A DNA stretch of 64,000 nucleotides from Bacillales bacterium (lineage in GTDB: Bacteria; Bacillota; Bacilli; CAJFEE01): assembly GCA_029256085.1 (NCBI GenBank), contig JAQSYP010000003.1, positions 3,891 to 67,890 on the forward strand. The letters run 5' to 3'. The notes beneath the pieces are model-generated. The model did not search any database, was not told the origin of the DNA, and saw only the letters and a list, made by a program, of their open reading frames with translations. The position numbers and the translations under genes were made by a program. Positions 1,807 through 33,286 of the stretch are shown one piece after another (the stretch's first letter is position 1; the number at the start of each line of letters is the position of its first letter).

Positions 1807-3399
<1,593 letters not shown>

Positions 3400-3437: not shown

Positions 3438-3573
3438 TATTGTTATGTGAGAATATGTAGAATTATTTCCCAGGAAAAGAAATATATTTTATAATTTTTG
3501 ATTTTCTTAATCTATTGTTATTCTAGTAGTGATAAAATATATAGTAACCGTTTTCAATATAGGAGGATATTTG

Positions 3574-4800
3574 ATGAGTAGATTTAATGAATATTTTTTA
3601 ATGAAAACTGAAGATGTAATAGATTATGTTAGAGATAAACTTAATATTTTTCCAGATAATGCTCAGTTAAGTTGTGTTGAAATTGGAGATGGCAACTTAA
3701 ACTATGTTTTTAGAGTTGAGGATGTTGAGACAAATAAATCTATCATTGTTAAACAGGCAGGAGTCACTGCTAGAATATCAGATGAATTCAAATTATCGCC
3801 CGATAGAAATAGAATTGAAACAGAGGTGTTGATTTTACAAGGTGAGTTAGCACCTGGGTTAGTACCTCAAGTAATCTTGTTAGACAACACAATGAGTTGT
3901 TGTGTGATGGAGGATTTAAGAGATTATACTATAATGAGACAAGCATTAATAAGTCATGAGGTATTTCCTAAATTCGCGGACCATATAACTACGTTTCTAG
4001 CAAATACATTATTACTAACAAGTGACGTTGTAATGGACCATAAGGAAAAAAAGAAGTTAGTTGTGAACTACATTAATCCTGAACTTTGTGAGATTTCTGA
4101 AGATCTAGTTTATACTGAACCATTTAATGATATTAATAATAGAAACGAACTATTTGAAGCAAACAAGTCTTGGATAATAGAAAATATCTACAAAGACGAT
4201 GCTTTAAGGTTAGAAGCTGCTAAATTAAAATTTGAATTTATGACCAATACTGAAAGTTTAATCCATGGTGATTTGCATACGGGTTCAATTTTTATTAATA
4301 AAGAATCAACAAAAGTTATTGATCCGGAGTTTGCTTTCTATGGTCCTATGGGATACGACATTGGAAATGTTATAGCAAATTTGATTTTCGCATGGGTAAA
4401 TGCTGACGCGACAATTAATGATGAACATAAAAAAGCAGAGTATAAGGATTGGCTAGAAAAAACAATTATTAGCGTAATTGATTTATTTAGTAATAAATTC
4501 TTAGACTTATGGAAAATAAATGTTAACGATAAATTAGCTAAAGAAAACGGATTTGACAGATGGTATCTTAATAGAGTTATACAAGATACTGCAGGTGTAG
4601 CTGGATTAGAGTTGTCTAGAAGAATAATTGGGTTAGCAAAAGTTAAAGATATTACTTCTATAGAAGATATAAACAAAAGAGTGAAGGCAGAAAGAATCTG
4701 TCTAAGTGTAGCTAAGGACTACATTAAAAATAGAAGTGATTTCCGTGAGGGTAATGATTTTATACAAGCACTCAATAATGCAGAGCGACTATTTAAATAA
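3574..4800 (+). CDS. mtnK: 5-methylthioribose kinase.
   Basis: [20 protein letters not shown] and [12 protein letters not shown] motifs match MtnK. AGGAGG RBS precedes the ATG at 3574; the ORF-track start at 3529 has no RBS. Confidence 0.9.
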
Positions 4801-4818
4801 TATTTTAAGGAGATAAAT

Positions 4819-5862
4819 ATGTCAGAACTACTACCTATTCAATGGAAAAATGATAAATTGGTGCTTTTAGACCAAACGGTTCTACCTAACGAAATAATTT
4901 ATGAAGAGTTCGAAACGATTGAGAGTGTTTGGGATGCGATTGTCGTAATGAAGGTAAGAGGGGCACCTGCAATTGGGGTATCTGCAGCTTACGGACTTTA
5001 TCTAGGTGTAAGAGAATTAGAATGTAATGATAGCAAAGAATTTTATGAGCAGGTTAAGGGAAAGGCAGCATACTTAGCTACATCCCGTCCGACTGCTGTT
5101 AATCTTTTCTGGGCATTAGAACGTATGGAAAATAAAGCAGAGCAGCTTGTGGATTTACCTGTTTCTTTAATGAAGGATGCTTTATTAGAAGAGGCTAAGT
5201 TAATTCACAAGGAAGACGAAGAAATTAATAGAATGATTGGCGAGAATTTATTAACTCTTCTAAAAGATGGAGTAGGGATTCTAACACATTGTAATGCAGG
5301 GGCTTTAGCGACAACTAAATATGGTACAGCAACTGCACCAATGTATTTAGCTAAGGAAAAAGGATGGAACTTTAAAGTATATTCAGATGAAACTAGACCT
5401 CGCCTTCAAGGATCTACCTTGACTGCTTTAGAGCTTCATCTGGCAGGAATAGACGTTACTGTAATTACTGATAATATGGCGGCAATGGTTATGTCACAAG
5501 GGAAAGTAGATGCTGTTATTGTTGGAACTGATAGGGTAGCAGCAAATGGAGATGTAGCCAATAAAATAGGAACGTTAGGAGTATCAATTTTAGCTAAGTA
5601 CTATAACATACCTTTTTATGTCGCGACACCTACTCCTACTATAGATTTAAGAACAGCAACTGGCAAAGAAATACCAATTGAAGAAAGAGAAACTACCGAA
5701 GTTACGAGTCGATTCGGATTAGAAACTGCACCAAAAGGTGTAAAGGTATATAATCCGGCATTCGATGTTACTCCTAATGAAAATGTAACTGCTATAATTA
5801 CAGAAAAGGGAATTGTCTATCCACCATTTGACGTAAACCTTAAAAAATTATTTGAACAATAG
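4819..5862 (+). CDS. mtnA: Methylthioribose-1-phosphate isomerase (eIF-2B alpha/beta/delta-like).
   Basis: Family signature. Adjacent to and co-oriented with mtnK. AAGGAG RBS. Confidence 0.9.
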
Positions 5863-5873
5863 GGAGTTAAAAA

Positions 5874-6518
5874 ATGCTACTTCTACAAAAAGAGCGTGAA
5901 CTTATAGTTGAATATTGTAAAAAACTTATAACAAATGGACTAACAAAAGGAACGGGTGGCAATATTAGTATTTTCAATCGTGATGAAGGGTTGGTCGCTA
6001 TTAGTCCTAGTGGTATTGATTATTTTCAAACTAATCCTGAAGATATAGTCGTAATAGATTTAGATGGAAAAATAATTGATGGTAATAGAAAGCCTTCATC
6101 TGAGTTAGAAATGCATACTATCTTCTATAAAAATAGAGATGATATTGATGTTATAGTTCATACACACTCACCATTTGCTAAAACAATTGCTACGCTAAAT
6201 TGGGAATTACCACCTGTCTCGTATTTAGTTGCATTTGCCGGTCCAAACGTAAGGTGTGCTAATTATGCAACTTTTGGAACTAGTGATCTTGCAAAAAATG
6301 CATTTGAAGCAATGATAGATAGAAGAGCAGTTTTATTAGCAAATCATGGCCTTCTTGCAGGTGCTCACAATATCGAAACAGCGTTTACTATTGCAGAAGA
6401 AATAGAGTTCTGCTGTGAAATCTACTACAGAACAAAATCAATTGGTGAGCCCGTGATGCTCTCGAAAGAAGAGATGGAAATCCTAAGTGAAAAATTTAAA
6501 ACTTACGGGCAAAGATGA
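5874..6518 (+). CDS. mtnB: Class II aldolase/adducin-family protein, probably methylthioribulose-1-phosphate dehydratase.
   Basis: TGTGGNIS motif and His-rich metal site typical of class II aldolases. Operon context with mtnKA. Confidence 0.7.
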   Translation: MLLLQKERELIVEYCKKLITNGLTKGTGGNISIFNRDEGLVAISPSGIDYFQTNPEDIVVIDLDGKIIDGNRKPSSELEMHTIFYKNRDDIDVIVHTHSPFAKTIATLNWELPPVSYLVAFAGPNVRCANYATFGTSDLAKNAFEAMIDRRAVLLANHGLLAGAHNIETAFTIAEEIEFCCEIYYRTKSIGEPVMLSKEEMEILSEKFKTYGQR

Positions 6519-12825: not shown

Positions 12826-12922
12826 TGGCGGGACTGCATGAGAATCGAACTCACCAGAGACAGCACGTGCCTCTCATACGGTTTTGAAGACCGCGGGGTG
12901 CACCAGCAACCCAATCAGCCCC
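12826..12922 (-). tRNA. selC: tRNA-Sec (selC-like), anticodon UCA, with a long variable arm and encoded CCA.
   Basis: Hand-folded: 8-bp acceptor with one A·G mismatch, D arm GGGTTGC/TGGT/GCACCCC, anticodon arm GCGGT-CTTCAAA-ACCGT, extra arm of about 20 nt, and T arm GTGAG-TTCGATT-CTCAT. 97 nt long. Divergent from selB. Confidence 0.75.
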
Positions 12923-13019: not shown

Positions 13020-14903
13020 ATGGAAAAAAAGTATTATACAATCGGTACAGCCGGTCATATAGATCACGGTAAAACGACCTTAATTAAAAATTTAACTAAT
13101 GTAGATACAGATAGGCTTAAGGAAGAAAAGGAAAGAAACATTTCAATAGAGCTTGGTTTCGCACCTCTGGATCTAGGGGACGATCTTCATGTATCTGTAA
13201 TAGATGTACCTGGTCATGAAAAGTTTATTAGGCAAATGATTTCTGGTGTTACAGGTATCGATTTAATGCTGCTAATCGTTGCTGCGGATGAAGGTGTAAT
13301 GCCACAAACACAAGAGCACTTAGAAATTTTAAGTTTACTCGAAGTTAAAAGAGGAATCGTAGTTATAACTAAAATTGATAAGGTTGATCAAGAACTAGTT
13401 GAAGTTGTTAAGGAAGAAATTAGAGACCAACTAGAAGGAACAATCTATTATGACAGTGAATTTGCATTGGTTGATAGCGTCAGTGGAAACGGATTAGATG
13501 CTTTAAAAAAATTAATAAAAACAGAATTACTTAAAGTTCAACCGAAACATCATACCGGGGCATTTCGAATGCCTGTCGATCAAGTATTTACGGTTAAAGG
13601 CCAAGGGACTGTCGTTAGAGGGACAGTTTATGAGGGTTCCATCTCACTAGGTGATACTATAACAGTCATGCCTGAAAATTTAAAAACGAAGGCAAGGCAA
13701 ATCCAAGTTTTCGGTAATCATGCAACTACTGTTGTTGCTGGGCAAAGGGCAGCAATAAATCTTGCAAATATAGAAAGAGATGAAATTGTTAGAGGTGACG
13801 TAATTGTTTCATCTGATGTGTATAAAGTTACAAAAACTATTGATGTTTCTTTGAAAATTGTTAAAGAAATTCAGCATCCTCTAAAGCAAAGATCGGAAAT
13901 TAAGGTACATATTGGAACATCGGGAGTAATGGGAAATGTGGTATTCTTTGATAGGAATGACGTTAAAGAATCAAATGATGAAATCTTGTGCCAACTACGA
14001 CTAGAGAATGAAATTGTTGCCAAAAGAGGTGACAGATTTATTGTTAGAAGGCCTTCCCCGGCAGAGACGGTTGGTGGTGGAGTTGTTGTTGATCCGAATG
14101 GTGATCGTTATAAGTTTGGTGAAAAAACGATAGAAATGCTTAAGTCGAAAAAGATAGGTTCACCTATTGAAAGAATGCAAACAATAATAGATATTAAAAC
14201 CCTTCTTTCTCAAAAGGATCTAATAACTTTCGCATCTGTTACTGAGCAAGAAATTTCACAATCAATAAATGATTGTGATTTAATAAAAATAGGGAATAGT
14301 TTAACTACCCCTGAGGTAATTTTAAGTCTAAAGAGATTAATTGTTGCGAACTTAAACTCATATCACAATATGTTCCCGCTAAGGTTAGGCTTAAACAAGG
14401 CAGAGTTGATACAAAATCTTACGAGTAGCTATGAAAAGTTGTTAATTGAATATGTAATTAATGACCTAATCAAAGACGCGACTTTAAAATTAAATGGACA
14501 ATTCGTCTCTATAGGAAGTTTTAAGCCTGAGTTACAAGGTAAATGGGCGAAAAGAATGGAACAAATACTAGTTAAACTAGAAAAGGACAGCTTCTTAGTA
14601 AAGCCATTTTCACATTATGTTACAGAGGAAAAGTTACCTGAAACTGAGGCGAAAGATTTTTATCATTTCTTAATTAGTGAAGGGCATGCTTATATTTTAG
14701 ATCCAATACATCTTATATCTACAAAAGCATTAAATGGCGCTTTAAAAAAGATGAAAGATGCAACTGGAGACAGCTTCGATTTACAAGTTGCAAAAGAAGT
14801 GTTAGGTATTTCTAGGAAATATTTAGTTCCCCTTATAGAACTATTTGATAAAATTGGACAAACGAAAAGAGTTGAAAATAGTAGATTCTGGTTAAATAAA
14901 TAA
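13020..14903 (+). CDS. selB: Selenocysteine-specific translation elongation factor SelB.
   Basis: N-terminal EF-Tu-like GTPase ([10 protein letters not shown]; DxPGH) plus C-terminal winged-helix extension. 627 aa. Confidence 0.9.
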
Positions 14904-14974: not shown

Positions 14975-15148
14975 CGTCATAGAATAGTCACAAAATAGAA
15001 ATATTTTGGAAATAATTTCATAACGATTTTGTCACTATTTTTATTTTTGGGGTTTAATAAAAACCTCTAACCCCTGGCCAGGTAAATGGACAGGTTTATA
15101 TTTTGGAATAAATTGTAAGCGATTTCTTAAACTTCAGGAGTGATACTT

Positions 15149-15877
15149 TTGATCAAAAAAGGATGTCCAGAAGAATACCCAATAACCTTGCATCTGAACA
15201 ACAATGAGATAGCTACTTTTCAGCTAACGAACAACGATCTAGAAGACTGGGCATACGGGTACCTCTTTTCCGAAGGGTTTATTACAACGAAGAGTGACAT
15301 TAGTCATATTCAACTAGATCAGGAAAAGGGCATAATTAAAGTTGAGTTAGAAAAAGGCTTTGACTCTGATGTTTTTTTCGATAAGAAAAAGCATTACACA
15401 GCTGGTTGTGGAAGAGGGGTAACCTTTTTCTCAATGACTGATGTTAAGGGTTTTAATAAAGCGGAAACATATTTTCAAATATCTAAACAATTTCTACTAA
15501 AGAAGATTCACGAATTCTCACTATCATGTCAGATGTATCTTGAAACAGGGGGAATGCACGGTGCATGTATACTTCACAAAGACGGTGACATCATCGTTAG
15601 GGAAGATATCGGTCGTCATAACGCTGTTGATAAAGTTATAGGGTATGCAGTGAGAAATAATCTCGATCCCAAGGGATTAATATTGTTAACTACTGGAAGA
15701 ATTTCCTATGAAATGCTTTCTAAAGCAGCTAAGTTTGGTTTTAGTGTTGTTGGATCTAGAACAGCTGCAACGATGCAAGCTGTGCAACTAGCTCGAGTCC
15801 TTAATATAGAAGTCATTGGTTACATTAGAGGTAGGATGTCTACTATTTATACAGATTTTAATAGAGTAGTAGATTAA
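15149..15877 (+). CDS. fdhD: Formate dehydrogenase accessory sulfurtransferase FdhD. The start is uncertain (TTG 15149 versus GTG 15140).
   Basis: GGMHGACI…GRHNAVDK motif containing the catalytic Cys of FdhD. Confidence 0.8.
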   Translation: MIKKGCPEEYPITLHLNNNEIATFQLTNNDLEDWAYGYLFSEGFITTKSDISHIQLDQEKGIIKVELEKGFDSDVFFDKKKHYTAGCGRGVTFFSMTDVKGFNKAETYFQISKQFLLKKIHEFSLSCQMYLETGGMHGACILHKDGDIIVREDIGRHNAVDKVIGYAVRNNLDPKGLILLTTGRISYEMLSKAAKFGFSVVGSRTAATMQAVQLARVLNIEVIGYIRGRMSTIYTDFNRVVD

Positions 15878-15953: not shown

Positions 15954-18926
15954 ATGAATGTAAGTCGTAGACAGTTTTTGAAATTGTCAGGTGCTACTGC
16001 AGCAACTTTAGCTTTAGTTGAATTAGGTTTCAACGAAAATGAAGTTAAAGCAAAATCGAAAGATTTTAAAATAGCTGAGTTAAAACCTACTCCGACAATT
16101 TGTCCTTACTGTTCTGTTGGTTGCGGTATTTTAGTTTATGCAACAGATAATGATGTTGTATACACTGAAGGGGACCCAGATCATCCGATTAACCAAGGTA
16201 GCCTTTGTAGTAAAGGAACTTCAATTCGCCAATTATATACTTCTGAAAAGCGTATGTTGAAGCCTTTATATCGTGCACCTGGAAGTAGCAAGTGGGAAGA
16301 AAAAGAATGGGGTTGGATGTTAGATAAAATCGCTGAGAGAGTTAAAGAATCTCGTGATAACTCATTCCAAATCGCTAAAGATGGTATTACAGTTAACCGT
16401 ACTGAAGCAATTGCATCACTAGGTGGAGCTGCTTTAGATAACGAAGAAACATATGTTATTCAAAAGTTGATGCGTGGGTTAGGTTTAACCTACATCGAGC
16501 ATCAAGCCCGAATATGACACAGTCCAACGGTTGCCGGTCTGGCGCCTACATTTGGTCGTGGAGCAATGACCAACCACTGGAATGACCTCCAGTATACTGA
16601 TTGCGCTCTAATTATGGGTGGAAACCCTGCTGAGAATCATCCAATAAGCTTTAAATATCTATTAAAAGCTAAACAAAATGGTGGGAAAATTGTATCAGTT
16701 GACCCACGTTTCACAAGATCGTCATCACAAGCAGATGTATACGCTCCGCTACGTTCAGGAACTGACATCGCGTTTCTTGGTGGTATGATAAATTACGCAA
16801 TTCAAAACGACATGATTCATAAAGATTATGTTGTTAGTTACACGAACGCTTCATTTATCGTTGAAGATACCTTCTCATATGAAGATGGTTTATTCAGCGG
16901 ATATGACGCAGAAAAACGTAAATATGATCAAAAACAATGGAAATATAAGACTGACGCTGAAGGAAAGACTGTTGTAGATAAAACTTTACAAAACCCTCGT
17001 TGCGTATATCAATTAATGAAGAAACATTTTGAAAGATATACAGTTGAAAAGGTATGTGAAGTTACAGGTACTCCTCAAGATAAATATATAGAAGTTGCTA
17101 AGACATTCTGTGCTACTGCTGACCCTAAGAAGGCGGGAACAATAATGTATGCAATGGGTACAACTCAGCATACAGTAGGAACACAAAATGTTCGTTCATT
17201 TGCTATCTTACAATTACTATTAGGAAATATTGGTGTTCCTGGTGGTGGTGTTCAAGCATTACGTGGAGAATCAAACGTTCAAGGTTCAACTGACTTTGGT
17301 TTATTATTCGGTAACTTAACAGGTTATATAGAAGTTCCACAAGCTGTTGCTGAGCAAGCTAGCTTAGAGAAGTTTTTAGGGGTTGTTACTCCAAAATTAG
17401 GATACTGGGTTAATAAGCCTAAGTTCCTTGTAAGTTTCTTAAAAGCAATGTATGGCAAGAGTGCTACTAAAGATAACGAATTTGGGTTCCAATTCTTACC
17501 TAAAATTGATCCTAAAGATTACTCACATATAGCACTATTTGAAAATATGTATGCTGGAAATCTTGATGGAGCGTTCTTATGGGGAACAAACCCAGTAGTT
17601 GGTGGACCTAACGCTTTAGTTGAAAAACAAGCTCTAGGTAAATTAAAGTGGATGGTAGCAGTTGACTTATGGGAAACTGAATCATCTTCATTCTGGCAAA
17701 AGGAAGCAGGAAGCAATCCAGAAGATATTCAAACTGAAGTATTCTTCTTACCTGCTTGTAGCTCATATGAAAAAGAAGGAACTGTTTCAAACTCTGGTCG
17801 TTGGATGCAATATCGTTGGCAAGCAATTAAGCCAAAGGGTGACTCAAAGGCTGATTTAGAAATCGTTCACATGTTAGCTCGTCGTTTAAAAGAAGCTTAC
17901 AAAGGTAGCACTAAGCCAGAAGATAAGCCTTTCCAAGCGATGACTTGGGAATTTGGTGAACATGATCATCCGGATATCGATTTAGTTGCTAAAGAAATTA
18001 ATGGTTACGATACAGTAACTGGTAAACTTGTTGCTAAATTCCCTGATCTAAAAGATGATGGAACTACTAGTAGTGGTAACTGGATTTATTGTGGATTCTA
18101 TCCTGAAGAAGGTAAGAACTTATCACAACGCCGTGACAATAAAGATACGGGTATGAGTAACTTCCTAAACTGGTCGTTCTCATGGCCAGTAAACCGTCGT
18201 ATTCTATACAACCGTGCTTCATGTGACCCTTCTGGTAAGCCATATAATGAGAAAAATGCAATTATATGGTGGGATGAGTCAGCAAAAGCTTGGGGCGGTT
18301 ATGATGTTCCTGACTTTAACAAACTTTTAGCTCCTTCAGATGAAGGTGGAGCAACTGCGTTTATGATGACTGGAACTACTAAGGGTAACTTATTTGCTCC
18401 TCGTAACGAAGGTCCGTTCCCTGAGCACTATGAGCCATTTGAAAGCCCAGTTCAGAACGCATTCTCGTCTCAACAAATTAATCCTGCTATTAAGATTTGG
18501 GATGGGGATCACAATCCTCGTGGAAACTCTGAGAAGTTCCCAATCGTAGCAACGACTTACCGTATGTCTGAGCACTGGCAATCAGGGGCAATGACACGTA
18601 ATACACCTTGGTTAGCTGAGCTTGTACCTCATATGTTAATTGAGATAAGTGAAGAATTAGCTAAGGATAAGGGAATAAAAGATAAGGATAAAGTTAAAAT
18701 ATCATCTGCACGTGGTGAAATTGAAGCATATGCAGTAGTTACTAAACGCTTTAAGCCTTATACGATACTAGGTAAAACAGTTCATCAAATCGGTATGATT
18801 TGGCATTTTGGTTACAAAGGTATTGTAACAGGTGCTTCGGCTAACAATTTAACTCCACACATTGGAGATGCGAACACAAATATTCCAGAATACAAAGCAT
18901 TCCTTTGTGATGTTAGGAGGGCGTAG
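15954..18926 (+). CDS. fdnG: Formate dehydrogenase-N-type catalytic alpha subunit, a selenoprotein. Tat signal RRQFLK. In-frame UGA (Sec) at 16515-16517 joins the two ORF-track ORFs 15954-16517 and 16566-18926 into one 990-aa protein.
   Basis: Same frame on both sides of the TGA. The context …[21 protein letters not shown]… matches the Sec site of FdnG/FdoG. A SECIS hairpin follows directly. selC, selB and selA are in the cluster. Confidence 0.85.
16518..16561 (+). promoter_or_regulatory. Bacterial SECIS element: hairpin with apical GGTTGCCGGTCTGGCGCC, immediately 3' of the UGA-Sec codon.
   Basis: Resembles the E. coli fdhF SECIS apex GGUUGCAGGUCUGCACC; the loop GGUC(U) is conserved. Confidence 0.65.
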
Positions 18927-18928: not shown

Positions 18929-19732
18929 GTGGAAAAGATGATTAAATTCGTAGACGTAACTTTATGCGACGGTTGTCGTGGTTGTATGGTAGCTTGTAAA
19001 AACTGGAACGATCTTCCGATTGAAATTGAAGAATTTCACGGAGTTCAGTCTCATGCTAATGTAACAGCTAACACTTGGAACGTTATAACTTACACTGAAG
19101 TTGAACGTAAAGATGGTGGACTTGATTGGTTATTCCGTCATGCTTCATGTCTACACTGTAAAGAAGCTAGCTGTGAGAAAGTATGTTCAGAAGATGCAAT
19201 TTCACACAGTAAGTATGATACAGTAGTAGTTGACGAAGATAAGTGTGTAGGTTGTGGATATTGCGTTGAGTACTGTCCATTTGATGTAATTCAACTTAAG
19301 ACGCTTAAAGATGGTCTTGTTGAGAAGAGAAAAGCATACAAGTGTACTATGTGTATTGACCGTTTAGACCAAGGCTTACAACCAGCTTGTGCTACAGCAT
19401 GTCACGCAGGTTCAATTGTATATGGTAATAAGGAAGAGTTATTAGCTAAAGCTGAAACTCGTTTACAAGATGTTAAGGATCGTTTCCCTAACGCTAACAT
19501 CTATAATCCAAAAGGGGTTGGTGGTACTAACACAGTTTATCTATTAGCAGATAAGCCAAGTGTATATGGATTACCAGAAAGCCCTAAAGTTCCAACATCA
19601 GCTGTGGTGTGGAAAGATTATGCTCAACCACTTGGGAAAGCATTATTAGGTGTTACAACAATGGCAGTAGTAGGTGCTGCGATCTCTAACGCAATCAATA
19701 ATAAAGGTGATGGAGGTCATGGCCATGAGTAA
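18929..19732 (+). CDS. fdnH: Formate dehydrogenase iron-sulfur beta subunit (FdnH-like) with four [4Fe-4S] motifs and a C-terminal TM anchor.
   Basis: CxxCxxCxxxC clusters and a C-terminal hydrophobic helix. GTG start with an AGGAGGG RBS. Confidence 0.85.
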   Translation: MEKMIKFVDVTLCDGCRGCMVACKNWNDLPIEIEEFHGVQSHANVTANTWNVITYTEVERKDGGLDWLFRHASCLHCKEASCEKVCSEDAISHSKYDTVVVDEDKCVGCGYCVEYCPFDVIQLKTLKDGLVEKRKAYKCTMCIDRLDQGLQPACATACHAGSIVYGNKEELLAKAETRLQDVKDRFPNANIYNPKGVGGTNTVYLLADKPSVYGLPESPKVPTSAVVWKDYAQPLGKALLGVTTMAVVGAAISNAINNKGDGGHGHE

Positions 19733-20396
19733 ACAAGTAAAACGTTTTTCTAAACCGGTTATTTTAGCTCACTGGTTAAATGCCTTCACATTTATGTTAT
19801 TGTATTTTACAGGATTACCATTATATTCAGAATGGTTTGATTGGGTTTACGTATTATTTGGTGGACCAGAAAATGCTAGATTTGTACATCATTATGGTGG
19901 TTTAGTATTTATTTTACCAACTGTGTTCATCTTATTAGTAGATGCTAAAAGTTTCACTCACTGGATGAAACAAATCTTCAGTTGGAAAGCACATGACTTT
20001 GCATTCTTTAAAGGTTTCGCTAAAGAATTCTTTGGTCTTCATGCTGATATTCCGAAGCAAGATTTCTATAATGCTGGTGAAAAGATTAACTCGTTATTAC
20101 AAGTATTCACTGCATTCTTACTAATCGTTTCAGGATTATTAATGTGGTTTGCAGATTTCTTTACTACAACTCTAGGCTTCTCACAATCAATTATTCTGCT
20201 TGCATACCCAATGCACTCAATCGCATTCGGTTTATCAGTTGCTGTAGTAGTTGGTCACGTTTACCTATCTATCGGACATCCGAATTCAAGACCATCAATG
20301 CAAGGTATCCTTAAGGGTTATATCTCTGAAGATTACGCTAAGGCTCACCATGGTAAGTGGTATGACGAGGAAGTTAAAGATAATTTAAAAATGTAA
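19725..20396 (+). CDS. fdnI: Formate dehydrogenase cytochrome b gamma subunit (FdnI-like).
   Basis: 4-TM protein with His ligands; overlaps the fdnH end. GGAGG RBS 8 nt upstream of the ATG at 19725. Confidence 0.8.
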   Translation: MSKQVKRFSKPVILAHWLNAFTFMLLYFTGLPLYSEWFDWVYVLFGGPENARFVHHYGGLVFILPTVFILLVDAKSFTHWMKQIFSWKAHDFAFFKGFAKEFFGLHADIPKQDFYNAGEKINSLLQVFTAFLLIVSGLLMWFADFFTTTLGFSQSIILLAYPMHSIAFGLSVAVVVGHVYLSIGHPNSRPSMQGILKGYISEDYAKAHHGKWYDEEVKDNLKM

Positions 20397-20487
20397 TTAA
20401 GTTTTTTTGAAGGAATGGCTACACTGGTGGTAGCCTTCCTTTATTTAACTAAAAATCCTATTGTTTCTAATTAGCGAGGTGCAAAAA

Positions 20488-21285
20488 ATGGGTCAACAAA
20501 ATGTTGTATCAAAAGAATACCAAGAGCTTCAAGAACAGTTAAACTCATGGCATAAGAATTGGTCAGAAAAGGTAAATGCAGAAGACATAACTAAGTCTTC
20601 CCCAAAAATTAGCAATGACCTACCAATCTTGAGTCAAATAGAAGTAAATATTAATGAAGAAATATTATCAGAAATGTTTGCTGACTTAATTTTACTTTTA
20701 AATGAGATAACACCGAATTTAAAGTCTTCACTTGTAAAAGTGGAAAATATAAAGAGCGAAGAGTTAAAAAAATGGTTTGAAGAATCTGTGCGTTCTAATA
20801 ATCTATACTTTGAGAAATATGCTGAAGAAAATGAACTTGAGTCATGGATACCCCAATTTTTAGCAGAACATTTAATTCGCCCGTTTTTACACGTGATGAG
20901 TAAACAATTTGAAGACAAGCTTGAAGGAATTAATAACGGTATAGGATGTAAATTTTGTGGTGAACCAGTACGCCTAGCTAAACAAGGAGAGAACGGGAAA
21001 AAGGTAGTTGTATGTCCACGATGTGAGGCGTCATGGGAACACAAGAAGCTAGAGTGTGCTATTTGCGGTAACGATGACCACAAGGAGCTTACAATTATCA
21101 AAATAGATGATGATACTACGGCTCAAATTCAAGCATGTAAAAAGTGTAATGGATACCTAAAATTTGTAGAAGCAAGAAACTTATTTAGAAACCATTCACC
21201 TGAAATAGTTGACCTATTAACTATTCACTACGATTATGTAGCTCAGGAAAAGGGATATGGCGAAAGTATAGAGCAAAAAAACTAA
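20488..21285 (+). CDS. fdhE: Formate dehydrogenase accessory protein FdhE.
   Basis: Multiple CxxC rubredoxin-like motifs (CKFCGEP…CPRCE…CAICGN…CKKCNGY). Confidence 0.8.
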   Translation: MGQQNVVSKEYQELQEQLNSWHKNWSEKVNAEDITKSSPKISNDLPILSQIEVNINEEILSEMFADLILLLNEITPNLKSSLVKVENIKSEELKKWFEESVRSNNLYFEKYAEENELESWIPQFLAEHLIRPFLHVMSKQFEDKLEGINNGIGCKFCGEPVRLAKQGENGKKVVVCPRCEASWEHKKLECAICGNDDHKELTIIKIDDDTTAQIQACKKCNGYLKFVEARNLFRNHSPEIVDLLTIHYDYVAQEKGYGESIEQKN

Positions 21286-21293: not shown

Positions 21294-21908
21294 ATGGATA
21301 AACTTAATATATCTAATATAATCTTAGCTGGCGGTCTCTCGTCAAGAATGGGAACAAATAAGGCAGAATTAAAAATTGGTGAACACACTGTTATTGAACG
21401 TATAATAAAAGAATTTGAACCACCTACTAACGAATCAATTATCGTTACAAATAATCCAAATTGCTATAATTCGTTTAATTGGAAATGTGTTAGCGATATT
21501 TACTTTCAAAAAGGTCCACTAGGTGGAATACATGCAGGACTGTTAAGTAGCACAAATGAAATTAATTTTGTTATATCGTGTGATATGCCTTTTCCAAATG
21601 CTAAACTTCTAACAAAAATGCTTGAACATATACACTATAACGATATAGTAGTTCCAGTAATAAATGAAAAGTTACACCCCTTATTTGGGTTGTACAAGAA
21701 GTCAATACTAACTGAATTGATTGATTGCTTGGAGCAAGATAATCTCCGTGTTAGAAAATTGTATGAGAAGTTAAGCACGTATTATATTACTGAGAAGGAA
21801 TTATATACTAAGAGTGAGTTAGAAAAAGGTATATATGAGATAGATTTTTTTAATATGAACACTATGAATGATTATTCAAAAGCAAAAAGCTTGTATAGTG
21901 AGTTTTGA
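21294..21908 (+). CDS. mobA: Molybdenum cofactor guanylyltransferase MobA-like.
   Basis: N-terminal ILAGGLSSRMG nucleotide-binding motif. Confidence 0.75.
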   Translation: MDKLNISNIILAGGLSSRMGTNKAELKIGEHTVIERIIKEFEPPTNESIIVTNNPNCYNSFNWKCVSDIYFQKGPLGGIHAGLLSSTNEINFVISCDMPFPNAKLLTKMLEHIHYNDIVVPVINEKLHPLFGLYKKSILTELIDCLEQDNLRVRKLYEKLSTYYITEKELYTKSELEKGIYEIDFFNMNTMNDYSKAKSLYSEF

Positions 21909-21941
21909 TGCCGCTAAGTATTGAAAGAAGGAAACATATAT

Positions 21942-23171
21942 ATGAAATTTTTCAATGTTCATACAGTTGAAGAAGTATTTAACTTAATCGACGATAAAAT
22001 CAAACCTATAGAATATACTGAAAAAGTTCTAATTAGCAACGCATTAAACCGAATATTATCAGTAGATATTTACTCTAATGAAAATGTTCCTAACTTTAGA
22101 CGTTCTACTGTAGATGGTTATGCTGTAAAAGCAGATGATACCTTTGGATCAAGCGAGTCAATGCCTGGTTTTCTTAACTTAATCGGTGAAATTAAGATGG
22201 GTGAGGAACCTTCTAGTGAAGTTAATTACGGAGAGGCAATGTATGTTCCAACAGGAGGAATGGTTCCTGACGGTGCTACTTCAGTAGTGATGATTGAACA
22301 CTGCGAAGAAATTGAATCACTTTTGAATGTTTATAGACAAGTTGCCCCGAATGAAAACATAATTCAGGTAGGGGAAGATATAAAAGTTAATGAACTTGTA
22401 CTGTCAAAAGGGAAGAAACTCCGAGCTCAAGAGCTTGGTGCGCTTTCTGCCTTAGGTATACTAGAAGTTGAAGTTTATAAGAAGATAAAAGTCGGCTATA
22501 TTTCAACTGGTGATGAGATAGTTACACCTGACACCATTAAATTAGAAATGGGTAAGGTTAGAGATGTTAATGCAATTACTCTCAACTCTATTTGTAAGCA
22601 AATGGATATTGATTTTATTTACGGAGGTATTGTTAAAGATAGTGAAGATGAGCTTTACAGAGTTACATCGAATTTATTAGCAGAAGTTGATTGCCTAATA
22701 CTTTCAGGTGGTAGTTCAGTTGGAACTAAAGACTACTCTGTAGATGTTATAAATAAATTAGGCAAACCAGGGGTATTTACCCATGGGATTTCTGTAAAAC
22801 CAGGCAAACCGACGATATTATCTATCGCAAATGACAAGCCTGTTATTGGATTACCGGGCCATCCTGTTTCTGCTTTAATAATATTTAAAGTGTTTGGAAC
22901 TACTATCCTTAATAAATATTCTGGTAACCGTAGTAGCTTATTTATTAATAAGATAACAGCTAAACTTACGAAAAATATCCCTTCAGCTGCTGGTAGGGCA
23001 GACTATATAAGAGTTAGCCTAGAAAAAACGGAAACTGGCTGGGATGCGACTCCTATTTTTGGGAAGTCAGGATTAATATCAACTTTAGTATCAAGTGAAG
23101 GTATTGCTGAAATTCCATCGGCTAAAGAAGGGGTTTTAGCTGGAGAATTAATAGAAGTAATACTTTTCTAA
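21942..23171 (+). CDS. moeA: Molybdopterin molybdotransferase MoeA.
   Basis: MoeA N, MoCF-biosynthesis and C-terminal domains. GAAGGA RBS before the ATG at 21942. Confidence 0.8.
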   Translation: MKFFNVHTVEEVFNLIDDKIKPIEYTEKVLISNALNRILSVDIYSNENVPNFRRSTVDGYAVKADDTFGSSESMPGFLNLIGEIKMGEEPSSEVNYGEAMYVPTGGMVPDGATSVVMIEHCEEIESLLNVYRQVAPNENIIQVGEDIKVNELVLSKGKKLRAQELGALSALGILEVEVYKKIKVGYISTGDEIVTPDTIKLEMGKVRDVNAITLNSICKQMDIDFIYGGIVKDSEDELYRVTSNLLAEVDCLILSGGSSVGTKDYSVDVINKLGKPGVFTHGISVKPGKPTILSIANDKPVIGLPGHPVSALIIFKVFGTTILNKYSGNRSSLFINKITAKLTKNIPSAAGRADYIRVSLEKTETGWDATPIFGKSGLISTLVSSEGIAEIPSAKEGVLAGELIEVILF

Positions 23172-23189
23172 CGGGTGTGTGATGCAAAT

Positions 23190-25106
23190 ATGATAAAAAA
23201 TAAATATGAACGTAAAATTTATCTATCAGATATTCCTAGGGAAAAGGCTCTTGAGCAAATATTATCACAATATAAACCGAAACTTAGGACAGTAACTAAA
23301 AATGCGACTGAGTCGATAGGAAACGTAACAGCCGAACCAATTTATGCAAAGAGATCTGTACCACATTATCATGCATCTGCAATGGACGGTATAGCGGTTA
23401 TAGCAGAAAGAACATTTGAAGCTAATGACAATAATCCTTTGCGCTTAATAAAAGGTGAAGACTACTGCATAGTAGATACTGGTAATGAAATAAAGTCTCC
23501 ATATGATTCAGTAATAATGATTGAAAATGTACAAGAGATTGATGAAAATATAGTAGAAATAATAGAACCAGCTACCCCATGGCAACATATTAGACCGATC
23601 GGTGAAGATATGGTCCAAGGTGAAATGCTATTTACGCAAGGTCATAAAATCAGACCAGTGGATCTTGGGGTACTTCTTTCAAGTGGCAATCAATCTGTAA
23701 AGGTTGTTATGCCTCCTAAAGTCACAATAATACCTACTGGTAATGAGCTAGTTTATCCTAGTGAAACAATTGAACCTGGAAAGATTGTTGAATTTAATGG
23801 ATCTGTTATGGCTGCATTCGTATCAGAGTGGGGCGGGCAACCTTTATTACACGAAATAGTAAAAGATAGTCCAGATTCAATTAAAGAAGCGCTTATAAAT
23901 GCTTCGAGGGATTCTGATGTAGTTATAATTAACGCAGGATCGTCTGCTGGATCAAAAGATTATACAGTTCATATAATCTCTGAAATTGGGAAAGTATTTA
24001 CACATGGCGTTGCAACTAGACCAGGAAAACCTGTTATCCTAGGAGAAATTAACGGAACAATAGTAGTTGGATTACCAGGATATCCAGTTTCAGCATATTT
24101 AGCATTGGAATGGTTTATAAAACCGTTAATAAATAAATATAACAATAATAACCATTGTAATAGGCATAAAATTAGTGCTAAACTTGGTCGTAGAATTGTG
24201 TCTACAATGGGTTCAGAAGATTTTGTACGTGTGACTTTAGGGAATATTAATGGAGAGCTAATTGCTAATCCATTGACTAGAGCTGCAGGAGTTACAATGT
24301 CGCTAGTGAAAGCAGATGGTTTACTTGTTGTTCCATCTAACGTCGTTGGTTTTGAACAAGGTGATTATGTTGAAATTGAACTTTATAAATCTATTGAAGA
24401 TATAGAAAAGTCAATAACTATAACAGGTAGTCATGATCTTGCCATAGATATATTGCACTCAATTCTAAAAAATACTAATACTGAGCAGACAATTACATCT
24501 ACTCACGTCGGAAGTATGGCAGGAATAATGGCAATTAAAAAAGGCGAGGCTCATATCGCTGGAATTCATCTGTTAGATCCAGAAACAAAAACGTATAATA
24601 TTCCTTACGTAAAAAAGCATCTAAAAGATAATAATATTGTTATATTGCCTTTTGTAAAAAGAATGCAAGGATGGATTACATCTAGTAATAATTTAAATGA
24701 ATATAGAAATGTTTCTGACCTTGTAAAAAACAAAATACCGTTTGTAAATAGACAAAAAGGTGCAGGAACTAGGATTCTCTTTGACTTGATACTAAGAGAC
24801 AATAACATTAAGCCATCTGAGATTCTTGGATATAATCGTGAGATGTTTACGCATCTAAGTGTTGCTGCAGAAGTTGCACAAACAAATAGTGTAGGACTTG
24901 GAATAGCTCCAGCTGCAGAAGCCATGGGATGTAGTTTCATACCAGTAGCTGAAGAATCATATGATTTACTTATGACTAAGGAATTTTTTGAAAGTCATTC
25001 TGGACAAACGTTATATAAAATCATAACTAGTTTAGAATTCAAACAAGAGGTTGAAAAAATTTCAGGTTATAAGGTTGATACTAATATAGAACCAATTTAT
25101 ATTTAA
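23190..25106 (+). CDS. MoeA-like molybdopterin molybdotransferase fused to a C-terminal periplasmic-binding-protein-like (substrate-binding) domain. The start is uncertain (23175 GTG versus 23190 ATG).
   Basis: N-terminal two-thirds is paralogous to MoeA. The C-terminal ~230 aa resembles a PBP/LysR-substrate-binding fold. Confidence 0.7.
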
Positions 25107-25128: not shown

Positions 25129-25326
25129 ATGTTCAACAATATCGGTGTACCAGGGCTTATTTTAATTTTATTCTTAGTACTAATAATTTTTGGTCCAAAA
25201 AAGCTTCCTGAAATTGGTAGAGCTTTTGGGCAAACATTAAAAGAGTTTAAGAAATCTACTAATGAATTAACAAAAGACATTACAGAAGAAGTAGCAGAAG
25301 TTAAAGACGAGATTAAAAAATTATAA
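25129..25326 (+). CDS. tatA: Twin-arginine translocase subunit TatA/E.
   Basis: 65-aa single TM plus amphipathic helix, with the [11 protein letters not shown] signature. Confidence 0.9.
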
Positions 25327-25421: not shown

Positions 25422-26840
25422 ATGAATAACCTTTTACGTCAATTGCCACCAATTCATGAGTTACAAAGAAACGATGCATACGAAATATTAAAGAATAAGC
25501 TCAAAGTTGGTGATGAACTAATAACGAATATATTAAAAATAGAAGTCGATGATCTAAGAAAGTTAATCCTTTCGAAAGGGAATTTAGATATTGATAATAT
25601 TGAAAAATATCTATTTGAAAAAGTTAAACACCATTTAAGTAGACTACTACAACCAAGATTAAAAAGAGTAATAAATGCAAGTGGAACAGTCTTACATACA
25701 AATTTAGGTCGATCAAGATTAAGTGACGACGCTATTACAAGAGTTGTTGAAGTAGCTAGAAATTATTCAAACCTTGAATATAATTTAGCTGAGGGTAAGC
25801 GTGGCTCCCGTCATTCAATAATTGAAGAATGGGTTAAATTAGCAACAGGTGCTGAGGCAGCTATGGTAGTAAATAATAATGCAGCAGCCGTTTACCTAAT
25901 TCTTAGAGCACTCGCTAAAGACAAAGAAGTTATTGTTTCGAGGGGGCAATTAGTCGAAATAGGTGGTTCATTTAGAGTTTCATCAATTATGGAGGAAAGT
26001 GGAGCCAAACTGAAAGAGATAGGCACAACTAATAAAACTCATATTAGCGACTATGAAGCTGCTATAACTGAAAATACAGCAATGCTATTAAAAGTACATA
26101 CTTCAAACTTTAAAATTATTGGATTTACAAAAACTGTAGAGTCCGATGAGTTAGTTCAGTTAAGTAATAAACACGACAATGTCATTGTCTATGAAGATTT
26201 AGGCAGTGGTGTTTTATATGACTATAAGAAAGATTGCATTGGGGATGAACCTCTAGTTAAAAGTGTATTAGATCAAGGTGTTGATATTGTTTCTTTTAGT
26301 GGAGATAAACTTCTTGGTGGACCTCAAGCAGGAATAATTGCGGGTAAAAAGCATCTAATTGAAAAACTAAAGAAAAATCAACTAGCACGAGTTCTTAGGG
26401 TTGATAAAATGACCTTAGCTGCATTAGAGGCAACAATATCCGCCTATGTTAGAGGAAATGAATATGCTAAAAGTATTCCAACCGTTAGGAATCTAGTTGA
26501 AACAAAGGATGTTGTTCATCAAAAGGCAATGATGATGGTTGATAAATTAGAATCTACTTCTAGAGGTTATTCTACACGTATCATAGAAGATGTTTCTGAA
26601 ATAGGTGGAGGTACTATGCCTGGTACAACTATCCCAACTTATGTTGTAGAGGTAAAGCATGATGTGGTTTCTACATCATTAATAGATAAAAAACTACATG
26701 AAAATGAAGTAAGTATTATTGGAAGAATCCAAAATGATAAAATCATATTCGATTTACGTACGGTAGAAATTGATGAGATACAAACGATTATAAATGCATT
26801 AATAAAACTTGAGGAACAATATGATTTATCCAGAAAATGA
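25422..26840 (+). CDS. selA: L-seryl-tRNA(Sec) selenium transferase SelA.
   Basis: PLP-lysine motif FSGDKLLGGPQAG. 472 aa. Confidence 0.9.
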   Translation: MNNLLRQLPPIHELQRNDAYEILKNKLKVGDELITNILKIEVDDLRKLILSKGNLDIDNIEKYLFEKVKHHLSRLLQPRLKRVINASGTVLHTNLGRSRLSDDAITRVVEVARNYSNLEYNLAEGKRGSRHSIIEEWVKLATGAEAAMVVNNNAAAVYLILRALAKDKEVIVSRGQLVEIGGSFRVSSIMEESGAKLKEIGTTNKTHISDYEAAITENTAMLLKVHTSNFKIIGFTKTVESDELVQLSNKHDNVIVYEDLGSGVLYDYKKDCIGDEPLVKSVLDQGVDIVSFSGDKLLGGPQAGIIAGKKHLIEKLKKNQLARVLRVDKMTLAALEATISAYVRGNEYAKSIPTVRNLVETKDVVHQKAMMMVDKLESTSRGYSTRIIEDVSEIGGGTMPGTTIPTYVVEVKHDVVSTSLIDKKLHENEVSIIGRIQNDKIIFDLRTVEIDEIQTIINALIKLEEQYDLSRK

Positions 26841-28781: not shown

Positions 28782-29804
28782 ATGTTTAAGAAATTAATAG
28801 CTACAGTAACGACTATGATATTAGTTCTATCACCTTTTACATTAGTAGCTAACGCAGAAACTAATACGGTGGATCTTCAGAAATTCCCGTACAAATCAGT
28901 TGCAATCCAGGTTATGCCAGAATATGATTATCCACAAAATTATCCAACGGATCAGCCAGTTGTGTTAGTGGGGTACTATGGTACGATGACTAATAAAACC
29001 GGAAGTGATTACAATGGAGAAATCGCTATTCCACTTCCAGTAAACGAAAAATATTTTCAAATATATATAGCTGCAGAATTCCCAGAGGAAAATAAGCCTG
29101 AAGTTCAGAGACCTTATAAGATCGATAAAGAAAAAGGTCTTATAACTTGGAAACCTTCTAATCCTATTAAAAAGGATGCAGATTATAAGTTTGTAGTAGA
29201 ATATTATTCGAATCCGATAGAAGTTGGAGATTCTAAGAAGTTTCCATTTGTATATACTGCACCTGCAAATGTAGATGCAATCGATATTCTGTTCTTTGCT
29301 CCGGCAAAATCAACAGATTTCAAAACAGATATTCCAGCAACAACAGTTTCTAAGACTGACTATAATGAAACACTTCTTGCATACCAGTATAAAAACCTAA
29401 AGGCTGGAGAGAAGAAAGCTTTTAACGTTTCTTATGTAAAAAAGGACAACTCTTCAACACTATCGAATATTAAACAGAACCCACCTGAAGCGAATCAATC
29501 AGGGTCAAATACTACAACTACAGAAAGTAGACCTATAATTGACGCTGTAGGGGCTTCGATAATTGGTGGATCTTTAATAATAATGGGATTTTTCATTTTC
29601 TTAGGATATAAACAAAAAGGTTCAACACCACCTTCTAAGAGTAATGTAAAGCACAAGAACAGTTCAACAAAGCAGCAACAGTCGGCACCAAAGAAAAATA
29701 ATAGCGTGTCAGTAATGGATGAGAAGAAAAAGCTTAGAAAAATGTTGCTTAATGGCGAGATAGATCAAGAAACTTACGAACTTAAACTATCAAAATTAGA
29801 ATAA
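28782..29804 (+). CDS. Uncharacterised bitopic membrane protein with a signal peptide, an ~250-aa extracytoplasmic domain, one TM and a cytoplasmic SHOCT-like tail. Paralogous in architecture to the 33287-34279 product.
   Basis: Signal peptide …LVANA. TM GASIIGGSLIIMGFFIFLGY. C-terminal LRKMLLNGEIDQETYELKLSKLE (SHOCT pattern). Confidence 0.6.
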   Translation: MFKKLIATVTTMILVLSPFTLVANAETNTVDLQKFPYKSVAIQVMPEYDYPQNYPTDQPVVLVGYYGTMTNKTGSDYNGEIAIPLPVNEKYFQIYIAAEFPEENKPEVQRPYKIDKEKGLITWKPSNPIKKDADYKFVVEYYSNPIEVGDSKKFPFVYTAPANVDAIDILFFAPAKSTDFKTDIPATTVSKTDYNETLLAYQYKNLKAGEKKAFNVSYVKKDNSSTLSNIKQNPPEANQSGSNTTTTESRPIIDAVGASIIGGSLIIMGFFIFLGYKQKGSTPPSKSNVKHKNSSTKQQQSAPKKNNSVSVMDEKKKLRKMLLNGEIDQETYELKLSKLE

Positions 29805-29819: not shown

Positions 29820-30284
29820 ATGAGTAAAAATGCAAAAATGATTGGTGGATCTCTAGTAATTGCAGTTGCGATTTTATTCCTATTAATTGCGGCAACACCA
29901 GGTTCAAGTGGAGTAGAGCTTAAATTAGCTGAACTACTAAAAGATCAACAAGAGTACACAGATGATTATGTAACTGTTGAAGGATTATTAATCGAGGATT
30001 CTATTAAATGGGATGCAGATAAAATCCAACTTAAATTTGACGTTCAAGATGAGAACGGTAAGAAGTTAAGTGTAATATATAACGGTGTTAAACCTGATAA
30101 TTTTTCTGAAGGTGTAATTACAATTTTACAAGGTAGTCCTGACGAGGAAAAAGCTGGTTTATTCCATGCAGAAACTGTAAAAACAAGATGTCCTTCAAAA
30201 TATGAAGGTGAGGACATGAAGAACTACGATCCAGAAGCTCACAAAGATAAGTTAAATAAAAAATCAGAAGAAGAGACAAAATAA
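29820..30284 (+). CDS. ccmE: Cytochrome c-type biogenesis heme chaperone CcmE, variant with a C-x3-Y (CPSKY) heme-binding motif in place of H-x3-Y.
   Basis: N-terminal TM. OB-fold core aligns with E. coli CcmE ([21 protein letters not shown] ~ [34 protein letters not shown] ~ AKEVLAKHDENYT). Confidence 0.8.
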   Translation: [154 protein letters not shown]

Positions 30285-30317
30285 AACTAAACTAGTAAAT
30301 TGAAAGGTGAAAACCAA

Positions 30318-32300
30318 ATGTATCTATTAGGAAACATATCAATTTACCTAGGATTAGCATTATCAATTTATTCACTAATTGTTTTAGTACTTGGTGTTAT
30401 TAAACAAAACCAAAGACTAATTAACAGCGGTAAAGGTGCTGCAATTAGTGTATTTATTTCTATGGCTACTGCAACTGCAGTAATGCTATACTTCCTAGGT
30501 ACATCTAACTTTCAGATTGAATACGTAAGAGATTACACAAGTTCTGAACTTCCAATGGGTTATAAGTTATCAGCACTTTGGGCAGGAAACTCTGGGTCTT
30601 TAATGCTTTGGAATTTATTCTTAACGATGTATATTGTTATGATTGTATTTTCAAGAAAACTTAAAGGGACTCCGTTTATTCCTTATGTTACGGCTATACT
30701 AATGGGTAATGCAGTGTTTTTCTACTTTGTATTAGGGTTTGTTGCTAAACCTTTCGTTCTGTTAGAGACAGCTCCTGCAGAAGGACACGGCTTAAATCCG
30801 ATGTTACAAAATCCTGGTATGTTAATACATCCAGTAACACTTTATTTAGGTTATGTTGGACTAGCTGTACCATTTGCATTTGCTATGGCAGCTTTAATAA
30901 TCAAAAATATGGATGATTTCTGGATTAAGATAACGAGAAGATGGACAATCATCGCTTGGTTATTCTTGAGTTTAGGTAATATTTTAGGTGCTCAGTGGGC
31001 ATACGTGGAATTAGGATGGGGTGGCTATTGGGCATGGGATCCAGTAGAAAATGCATCATTCATGCCATGGCTAACAGCTACTGCATATCTACACTCAGTA
31101 ATGATTCAAGAACGTAAAAACATGTTAAAAGTTTGGAATATAGCATTAATTATTACTTCGTATGCATTAACGTTATTTGGGACTTTCCTAGTACGAAGTG
31201 GAGTTCTTACATCAGTACATGCTTTTGCGAACTCTTCACTAGGTACATGGTTCTTAGTGTATATGACTATCGCATTACTAGGCGGACTTTATGTTGTGTT
31301 TAGTAGATATCATTTAATTAAACGCGATGCTGGTCAATTCCAGTCATACTTATCAAAAGAAAGTAGCTTCCTATTTAATAACCTTATCTTAGTTGGATCT
31401 GCTTTTGCGGTATTCTGGGGAACAATATTCCCAATCGTATCAGAAGCTATTAAAGGTAAGAAAGTAACAGTAGGTATACCTTTCTTTAACACTGTACAAG
31501 CTCCGTTACTTTTATCATTAATTTTTATCATGGCAGTTTGTCCACTAATCGCTTGGCAGAGATCTTCTGGGAAAAACTTAGTTAAGAATTTCTTAATACC
31601 GGCATTAGTAAGTTTAGGGATAGCAATACTTTTATTTATACTTGAAGTTACAAAGCCTTGGGCATTAATTAGTTATACGGTAGTTGCATTTATGATTCTT
31701 ACTCACGTTTCAGAATTTATCAAAGGAACAAGAGCTAGAATGAAAATGACAGGTGAAATGATTCCTGTAGCATTATATCGTTTAGCTGTTAGAAATCGCA
31801 GAAGATACGGTGGGTATATCGTCCATTTTGGTATTGCGTTAATAGCACTAGGCATCATTGGTTCACAGAACTATGAGACAGAAATAATGAAAACAGTATC
31901 TCAAGGTGAAGTAATTAGAATAAACAACTATGCTATTACTTATGAGAAATTAGATCAAAAGTCGGAAGGCATAAATGATATTATCTATGCTGATCTATCA
32001 ATTCAACACGCTGGAAAACCAATTGGTATTTTCGAACCTGAGAAGGTTTTCTACGGTAACTGGGATCAACCATCTACAGAAGTTTCTCTTTACAGTACAT
32101 GGAAAGAAGACTTATATATTACATTAAATAACTGGGAAGATGATGGACGAGCGACATTCCATATCAAGGTAATTCCAGGAATGCAGTTAATGTGGACAGG
32201 TTCTATATTATTAGTTATAGGAACGTTGTTTGCAATTTGGAGTGGTAAGTTTGGTAATATTACTCCAAGATACACAGGTAATCAAAAAGACGTATTTTAA
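30318..32300 (+). CDS. ccmF: Cytochrome c-type biogenesis protein CcmF (heme lyase subunit).
   Basis: WWD domain WGGYWAWDPVENASFMPWL. Polytopic, about 660 aa. Confidence 0.9.
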   Translation: MYLLGNISIYLGLALSIYSLIVLVLGVIKQNQRLINSGKGAAISVFISMATATAVMLYFLGTSNFQIEYVRDYTSSELPMGYKLSALWAGNSGSLMLWNLFLTMYIVMIVFSRKLKGTPFIPYVTAILMGNAVFFYFVLGFVAKPFVLLETAPAEGHGLNPMLQNPGMLIHPVTLYLGYVGLAVPFAFAMAALIIKNMDDFWIKITRRWTIIAWLFLSLGNILGAQWAYVELGWGGYWAWDPVENASFMPWLTATAYLHSVMIQERKNMLKVWNIALIITSYALTLFGTFLVRSGVLTSVHAFANSSLGTWFLVYMTIALLGGLYVVFSRYHLIKRDAGQFQSYLSKESSFLFNNLILVGSAFAVFWGTIFPIVSEAIKGKKVTVGIPFFNTVQAPLLLSLIFIMAVCPLIAWQRSSGKNLVKNFLIPALVSLGIAILLFILEVTKPWALISYTVVAFMILTHVSEFIKGTRARMKMTGEMIPVALYRLAVRNRRRYGGYIVHFGIALIALGIIGSQNYETEIMKTVSQGEVIRINNYAITYEKLDQKSEGINDIIYADLSIQHAGKPIGIFEPEKVFYGNWDQPSTEVSLYSTWKEDLYITLNNWEDDGRATFHIKVIPGMQLMWTGSILLVIGTLFAIWSGKFGNITPRYTGNQKDVF

Positions 32301-32309
32301 TTAAAGCAG

Positions 32310-32346
32310 CTGGGGGAGAGTCTTTCTCCCCAGAGCTTTTTTTGAG
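32310..32346 (+). terminator. Strong intrinsic terminator between ccmF and the ccmH-like gene.
   Basis: ctgggggagag-tctt-tctccccag hairpin followed by TTTTTTT. Confidence 0.65.
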
Positions 32347-33285: not shown

Positions 33286-33286
33286 T

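Follow-up and report, generated by a model that had tools for sequence, protein, structure and literature searches.

FdhA has been described as belonging to the most widespread selenoprotein families of bacteria (PMC9312934). According to Zhang et al. 2006 (PMC1794560), the genes for selenocysteine (Sec) insertion commonly lie together with fdhA, above all in genomes whose sole selenoprotein is FdhA, and selD is frequently separate from selABC in both evolution and location. In E. coli, fdnG, encoding the alpha subunit of formate dehydrogenase N, is annotated as one coding sequence running through a TGA at codon 196 (V*HGPTV). By the rules for the E. coli Sec insertion sequence (SECIS), a 17-nt upper stem-loop follows the UGA at a distance of 11 nt, with U17 bulged out and G23 and U24 placed in its loop; SelB binding is assigned to U17 and G23 (PMC8659212). 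Here, a stretch of 64,000 nts from a Bacillales metagenome-assembled genome (MAG) was analysed (assembly GCA_029256085.1, contig JAQSYP010000003.1, positions 3,891 to 67,890 of the forward strand; hereafter the window), in which two adjacent open reading frames (ORFs) with homology to FdnG are separated by an in-frame UGA followed by a hairpin. These ORFs are almost certainly one gene, encoding the alpha subunit of a membrane-bound molybdopterin formate dehydrogenase of the FDH-N type, exported by the twin-arginine translocation (TAT) pathway, in which residue 188 is a UGA-encoded Sec. The features that define the gene are the following (window positions).

15954-18926, + strand: FdnG-type formate dehydrogenase alpha subunit as a single gene, 990 codons including Sec188
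16515-16517, + strand: in-frame UGA, codon 188, predicted to be read as selenocysteine from its alignment with FdnG Sec196 and the FdhA Sec and from the relatives
16518-16560, + strand: full SECIS stem-loop, in which the lower stem pairs 16518-16527 with 16552-16560, with one A x C mismatch
16529-16546, + strand: apical SECIS hairpin, the presumed SelB-binding part, starting 11 nt (16518-16528) after the UGA

The ORF finder lists 15954-16517 (187 aa) and 16566-18926 (786 aa) separately. The original prediction, made from the letters of the window, held that the gene had been split by the ORF track, that both ORFs lie in the same frame and that the UGA is codon 188 of the alpha subunit. All of this was borne out. 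The ORF starts differ by 612 nts (3 x 204), the junction reads as quoted, and the sole internal stop in the translation of 15954-18926 is the TGA at codon 188. The need for a frameshift, which had been named as evidence against a single gene, did not arise. The NCBIfam profile of the formate dehydrogenase-N alpha subunit, TIGR01553, is matched at positions 2-194 by the N part (216.5 bits) and at positions 196-1008 of 1009 by the part following the TGA (1016.4 bits for a cut-off of 814.2), hence the TGA occupies profile position 195. For comparison with solved structures, the stop at codon 188 was replaced by Cys. The joined protein then matched D. vulgaris FdhA over its full length (PDB 8cm4 and 6sdr, E ~1e-301 to 1e-300, residues 1-989) and E. 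coli FdnG from end to end (1kqf, E = 1.9e-277). Codon 188 falls on the X (Sec) of IEHQARIXHSPTV in the 8cm4 chain, and the TGA of the window aligns base for base with that of E. coli fdnG, with 46 of the 59 surrounding nts identical. The Sec active-site context of FdnG/FdoG that had been claimed for the junction was thus confirmed, as was, in the alignment with FdnG that had been proposed as a check, Sec at the homologous position (Sec196 of E. coli). The protein also carries a TAT signal (RRQFLK, residue 5), a 4Fe-4S motif (CPYCSVGC, residue 50), the Sec188-His189 active-site pair and an ALRGES segment at 435, corresponding to the conserved Arg region. A scan of the 64-kb window for other credible pairs of ORFs split by TGA found none.

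Public annotation treats the TGA as a stop. The JGI gene calls on two contigs (L084 and L085) split the alpha subunit into products of 187 and 770 aa, and at NCBI the 187-aa fragment is listed as a separate protein, MDF2946674.1, from a "Bacillales bacterium" MAG; by exact look-up, the window lies on the 196,405-bp JGI metagenome contig Ga0456364_0000204. An exact look-up of the 786-aa ORF returned no match because the public call, of 770 aa, starts at a later ATG (window position 16614). The locus would then be either a pseudogene or a source of two polypeptides, a 187-aa TAT/Fe-S fragment and a molybdopterin fragment of 770-786 aa. Such a reading agrees with the annotated products and with the use of TGA as an ordinary stop in this genome, where it terminates 4 of the 47 supported ORFs of the window, but it is very improbable. 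The split would remove the catalytic residue, and the public second ORF further omits codons 188-219 (32 codons), including the active-site His. Full-length homology is intact on both sides of the TGA and no further stop is present, Sec machinery adjoins the gene, and two strains that differ at 5 of 2973 nts of the alpha gene encode an identical 187-aa product. A TGA at exactly this codon, always accompanied by a conserved hairpin, is moreover found in 76 of 79 relatives belonging to several phyla.

The RNA downstream of the UGA matches the Rfam family SECIS_3 (RF01989) at 16512-16570 over the whole model (positions 1-59), with 69.9 bits for a gathering score of 63. For the whole 64-kb window, the match has an E value of 2.3e-14 and is thus not due to chance. 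The fdhF-type model, SECIS_2 (RF01988), scores 17.6 bits on the same element for a cut-off of 70. Hence the expectation of a SECIS was correct, and its description as "fdhF-like" needs a small correction: over its whole length, the element is of the fdnG/fdoG type. Similarly, the SECIS had been placed directly 3' of the UGA, which is true of the full stem, beginning at 16518; the 18-mer that had been quoted, GGTTGCCGGTCTGGCGCC, is the apical hairpin at 16529-16546 and starts 11 nts later, at the canonical spacing. With the fdhF numbering, which counts from the U of the UGA, U17 is U16531 (bulged), and G23 and U24 are G16537 and U16538 in the loop. The apical hairpin therefore conforms to the E. 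coli rules in its 11-nt spacing, its bulged U17 and its G23-U24 loop.

To follow the codon and the hairpin among relatives, a scan of one genome per species yielded 80 loci at 50-70% identity (the closest at 70%), none of them from the source genome itself and among them Neobacillus, Cytobacillus, Peribacillus, Schinkia, Syntrophomonadaceae, Rokubacteria, Elusimicrobia and Anaerolineales; the homologous codon could be read in 79. It is TGA in 76 and TGC (Cys) in 3. The 59-mers of the 76 TGA-bearing relatives and of the window aligned without gaps. In these 77 sequences, columns T20 and G26 are invariant and T27 is conserved in at least 90%, so that U17, G23 and U24 are invariant or nearly so. 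According to the Rfam structure, pairing in the upper helix reaches 94.7%, and compensatory changes occur at pair 21-33 (UA 33, GC 10, UG 5, CG 2) and at pair 22-32 (GC 40, CG 4). Sliding the 3' partners by 1-3 columns to either side lowered the proportion of paired cells in the whole structure from 79.8% to 34-52%. Synonymous codon choice is constrained as well: the entropy over codons +4 to +10 is 0.51 bit vs 1.32 bit at conserved degenerate codons elsewhere within a 111-codon stretch (Mann-Whitney p = 0.001), with ACG used in 76/77, GCC in 73/73, GGT in 73/77 and CTG in 67/77 sequences. Finally, the folding energy of the apical hairpin ranges from -7.3 to -12.6 kcal/mol in all 77 TGA sequences (-7.3 kcal/mol in the window), whereas the three Cys relatives reach -1.4 to -3.0 kcal/mol with a different fold. 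Taken together, the pairing, the synonymous constraint and the loss in the Cys relatives indicate that the RNA hairpin, in its upper helix, is under selection in its own right and has been lost where Cys replaced Sec. An ordinary residue at this position in homologues with no conserved hairpin had been named as a finding that would speak against Sec; this combination was seen in the three Cys homologues and nowhere among the 76 with TGA.

The Cys codon of these three relatives raises the question of a sequencing or assembly error for TGC in the window. The chance of this is extremely remote. A contig assembled independently from a second sample, which shows the 5 differences in the alpha gene mentioned above, agrees with the window in the TGA and, letter for letter, in the hairpin, which excludes an assembly error. 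In addition, the hairpin is intact in the window and missing in the Cys homologues, and selB, selC and selA would be left without a client gene. A Sec codon is hence preferred for the window, and the three TGC loci (L008, L060 and L064, codon at 2998-3000), which belong to two Syntrophomonas-like MAGs and one Bacillota MAG, are natural Sec-to-Cys replacements.

A scan of the relatives at the Rfam gathering score detected E. coli fdnG only and missed the TGA-bearing loci L001, L049, L066 and L072. It was therefore unusable as a Sec-versus-Cys control, and hairpin energies were used for that purpose. The hairpins of these four loci are intact though below the SECIS_3 cut-off, showing that the curated model is narrow; the window element itself exceeds that cut-off by just 7 bits. 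One of them, L049, belongs to an uncultured Bacilli MAG and has another FDH-alpha-like TGA site near 5704, downstream of the first operon. The 59-nt SECIS region of this site is identical to that of the first, which suggests a tandem duplicate.

The genes around the alpha gene are the following, in order of position.

12826-12922, - strand: tRNA-Sec (selC), anticodon UCA, divergent from selB (ARAGORN; Rfam RF01852, 64.4 bits for a cut-off of 47)
13020-14903, + strand: selB, Sec-specific elongation factor (TIGR00475, 372.6 bits for a cut-off of 242.25)
15140-15877, + strand: fdhD, formate dehydrogenase accessory sulfurtransferase (TIGR00129, 169.2 bits for a cut-off of 140.9)
18929-19732, + strand: putative beta (FdnH-like) iron-sulfur subunit (TIGR01582)
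19674-20396, + strand: putative gamma (FdnI-like) cytochrome b subunit (TIGR01583; Pfam Ni_hydr_CYTB)
20461-21285, + strand: FdhE-like accessory protein, a weak match (TIGR01562, E = 2.9e-7, far under the cut-off)
21294-21908, + strand: mobA, molybdenum cofactor
21921-23171, + strand: moeA, molybdenum cofactor
23175-25106, + strand: long gene of the moeA family, molybdenum cofactor
25129-25323, + strand: tatA/E, small twin-arginine translocase component (PF02416, E = 6.3e-21)
25422-26840, + strand: selA, L-seryl-tRNA(Sec) selenium transferase (TIGR00474, 556.7 bits for a cut-off of 267.9)

SelB carries the C-terminal winged-helix domains SelB-wing_2 and SelB-wing_3 of Pfam. A tatA gene in the cluster is consistent with the TAT signal of the alpha subunit. 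The beta gene adjoins the alpha gene in all 79 relatives, and the position of the FdhE-like gene is kept in 59 of them. In the ORF list, the beta and gamma genes overlap by 59 nts; the public calls start at 18986 for beta and 19719 for gamma, with some overlap persisting, and the listed starts may lie too far upstream.

Read-through of the UGA independently of SelB and SECIS, either by a reassigned code or by near-cognate insertion of Trp or Cys, has to be considered in this context, as near-cognate read-through of UGA occurs in bacteria. It is nonetheless most unlikely at this locus. In the window, TGA ends ORFs that match their profiles over the full length (e.g., 5874-6518, positions 2-213 of 214), and the locus has both a canonical SECIS and the machinery dedicated to Sec. 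SelB-dependent insertion of Sec is thus the preferred explanation.

Several observations weigh against this explanation or against the assignment of the operon. The minimum-free-energy (MFE) fold of the isolated 61 nts (16515-16575) is no better than that of shuffled sequences (z = -0.22), and it prefers a competing 3' hairpin (~16552-16573) over the lower stem. The apical hairpin is retained in this fold. Because MFE folding was uninformative, the covariance model, the comparative pairing and the energy of the apical hairpin were used instead. Across relatives, the lower helix is just 68% paired, which fits the small contribution reported for the lower part of the SECIS in E. coli (PMC8659212). 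Both the beta and gamma subunits score under their curated equivalog cut-offs (215.8 vs 334.7 bits and 112.6 vs 115.85 bits, respectively), and their assignment as probable beta and gamma subunits rests on their best matches (FDH-beta and FDH-gamma) and on their conserved position. Finally, no selD was found among ORFs of at least 100 aa in the 64-kb window, nearly all of which were scanned, or in the ~4 kb and 8.6 kb of flanking contig.

At this locus, the analysis established the reading frame, the homology, where the UGA lies, the match to an RNA family, that the hairpin is conserved and covaries, and that selC, selB and selA are present; SelB binding, Sec insertion and enzyme activity are expected by analogy with the known E. 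coli system. During translation, SelB would attach through its C-terminal winged-helix domains to the hairpin just 3' of the UGA. Encoded directly upstream of the operon, it would compete with release factor 2 at the ribosomal A site and bring Sec-tRNA(Sec) to the UGA placed there. The tRNA(Sec), encoded 3.6 kb upstream, would be charged with Ser and converted from Ser-tRNA(Sec) to Sec-tRNA(Sec) by SelA, encoded at the downstream end of the operon, while the selenophosphate synthetase SelD would have to be encoded elsewhere.

The position of selC and selB on one side of the fdh operon and of selA on the other, so that the sel genes bracket it, is the sole local peculiarity. Of the 79 relative loci, just 1 has selB in the 3 kb preceding its alpha gene, hence this arrangement is absent from the Bacillaceae relatives. 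Conceivably, in this Bacillales lineage, the Sec genes, tatA and the molybdenum cofactor genes gathered around the operon form a self-contained cassette, recently assembled or horizontally transferred, with this selenoprotein as its sole client. This is doubtful. Base composition shows no foreign island, the cluster having 32-37% GC vs 33.8% overall, and the general association of sel genes with fdhA was described in 2006 (PMC1794560).

Elsewhere in the window, a System I cytochrome c maturation set occupies 29820-37104.

29820-30284: CcmE-like protein
30300-32300: CcmF/NrfE
32387-32896: CcmH
34279-35010: ABC ATPase of the ccm cluster
35000-35677: CcmB
35680-36429: CcmC-like assembly protein
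36586-37104: thioredoxin-like protein of the ccm cluster

Bacilli usually use System II (ResBC), and System I is somewhat unusual for a Bacillales MAG. Beside or inside the cluster, the ORFs at 28782-29804, 32908-33285 and 33287-34279 have no Pfam or NCBIfam match, and N-termini resembling signal peptides are found in at least two of them (28782-29804 and 33287-34279). None of the three contains a CXXCH haem-binding motif, hence they yielded no client cytochrome for the ccm genes. Near the left end, a T-box leader (1423-1657, - strand, Rfam 140.9 bits) precedes a branched-chain amino acid transporter gene, which runs off the window and can be seen in locus L083 at 3871-5217. An ordinary methionine-salvage cluster at 3529-6518 encodes methylthioribose kinase, methylthioribose-1-phosphate isomerase and a class II aldolase/dehydratase-like protein. 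The stretch 45799-47616 encodes a 431-aa HD-domain protein that has an HD_assoc_2 region and, directly after it, a 172-aa ORF without a family match.

The alpha gene is a standard bacterial selenoprotein gene of an already known kind, and the result is a correction of annotation rather than a discovery; it adds nothing to the knowledge of Sec insertion. The correct product would be a single 990-residue selenoprotein, of which the public "formate dehydrogenase" calls drop the catalytic Sec-His pair, and its recognition would mark the organism as selenium-dependent for respiratory formate oxidation.

Among solved structures, the best match is the alpha subunit of FdhAB from D. vulgaris Hildenborough (PDB 6SDR and 8CM4), which is identical around Sec (IEHQARI-Sec-HSPTV). 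FdhAB is a soluble periplasmic heterodimer that contains tungsten. Unlike it, the present operon includes a probable cytochrome b subunit, and the metal is not readable from the sequence. With regard to E. coli fdhF, the SECIS of which we take to be GGUUGCAGGUCUGCACC, the apical hairpin is presumably nearly the same, being 1 nt longer here, and only the portion GGUUGC(C)GGUCUG looks fdhF-like. The two elements share the 11-nt spacing from the UGA, the bulged U17 and the loop G23 and U24 (rules in PMC8659212), but the window element falls well short of the SECIS_2 cut-off, as stated above, and its host protein is of the periplasmic FdnG type and not the cytoplasmic FDH-H.

Among the closest known systems are FdnG and FdoG of E. 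coli (FDH-N and FDH-O; PDB 1KQF, Sec196), with which the window protein shares the TAT signal, the 4Fe-4S motif and the aligned Sec-His site. The SECIS belongs to the same Rfam family, RF01989, the cut-off of which it exceeds, and differs at 13 of the 59 nts compared; the apical hairpin is GGUUGCCGGUCUGGCGCC here and GGUAGCAAGUCUUGCUCC in E. coli fdnG. The gene context is likewise similar, with genes for a probable Fe-S and a probable cytochrome b subunit alongside, as well as fdhD and a weakly matching fdhE-like gene. The window differs in coming from a Bacillales MAG of low GC content (33.8%), in the scores of its beta and gamma subunits, which lie under the equivalog cut-offs, and in having selC, selB and selA within the fdh cluster.

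The Sec-containing FdnG orthologues of Bacillaceae (Neobacillus, Cytobacillus, Peribacillus, Schinkia and others; L001-L053) are 65-70% identical in protein; they share the TGA and the gene order fdhD-alpha-beta-gamma-fdhE-mobA, and their SECIS is nearly identical. They differ in having mostly HSSTV where the window protein has HSPTV, and selB is not within 3 kb upstream of their alpha gene. The selA-selB-selC clusters described next to fdhA likewise group Sec genes with fdhA and leave selD elsewhere, as would be the case here (Zhang et al. 2006, PMC1794560). Unlike the single selABC operon of that report, the sel genes of the window stand on both sides of the fdh operon.

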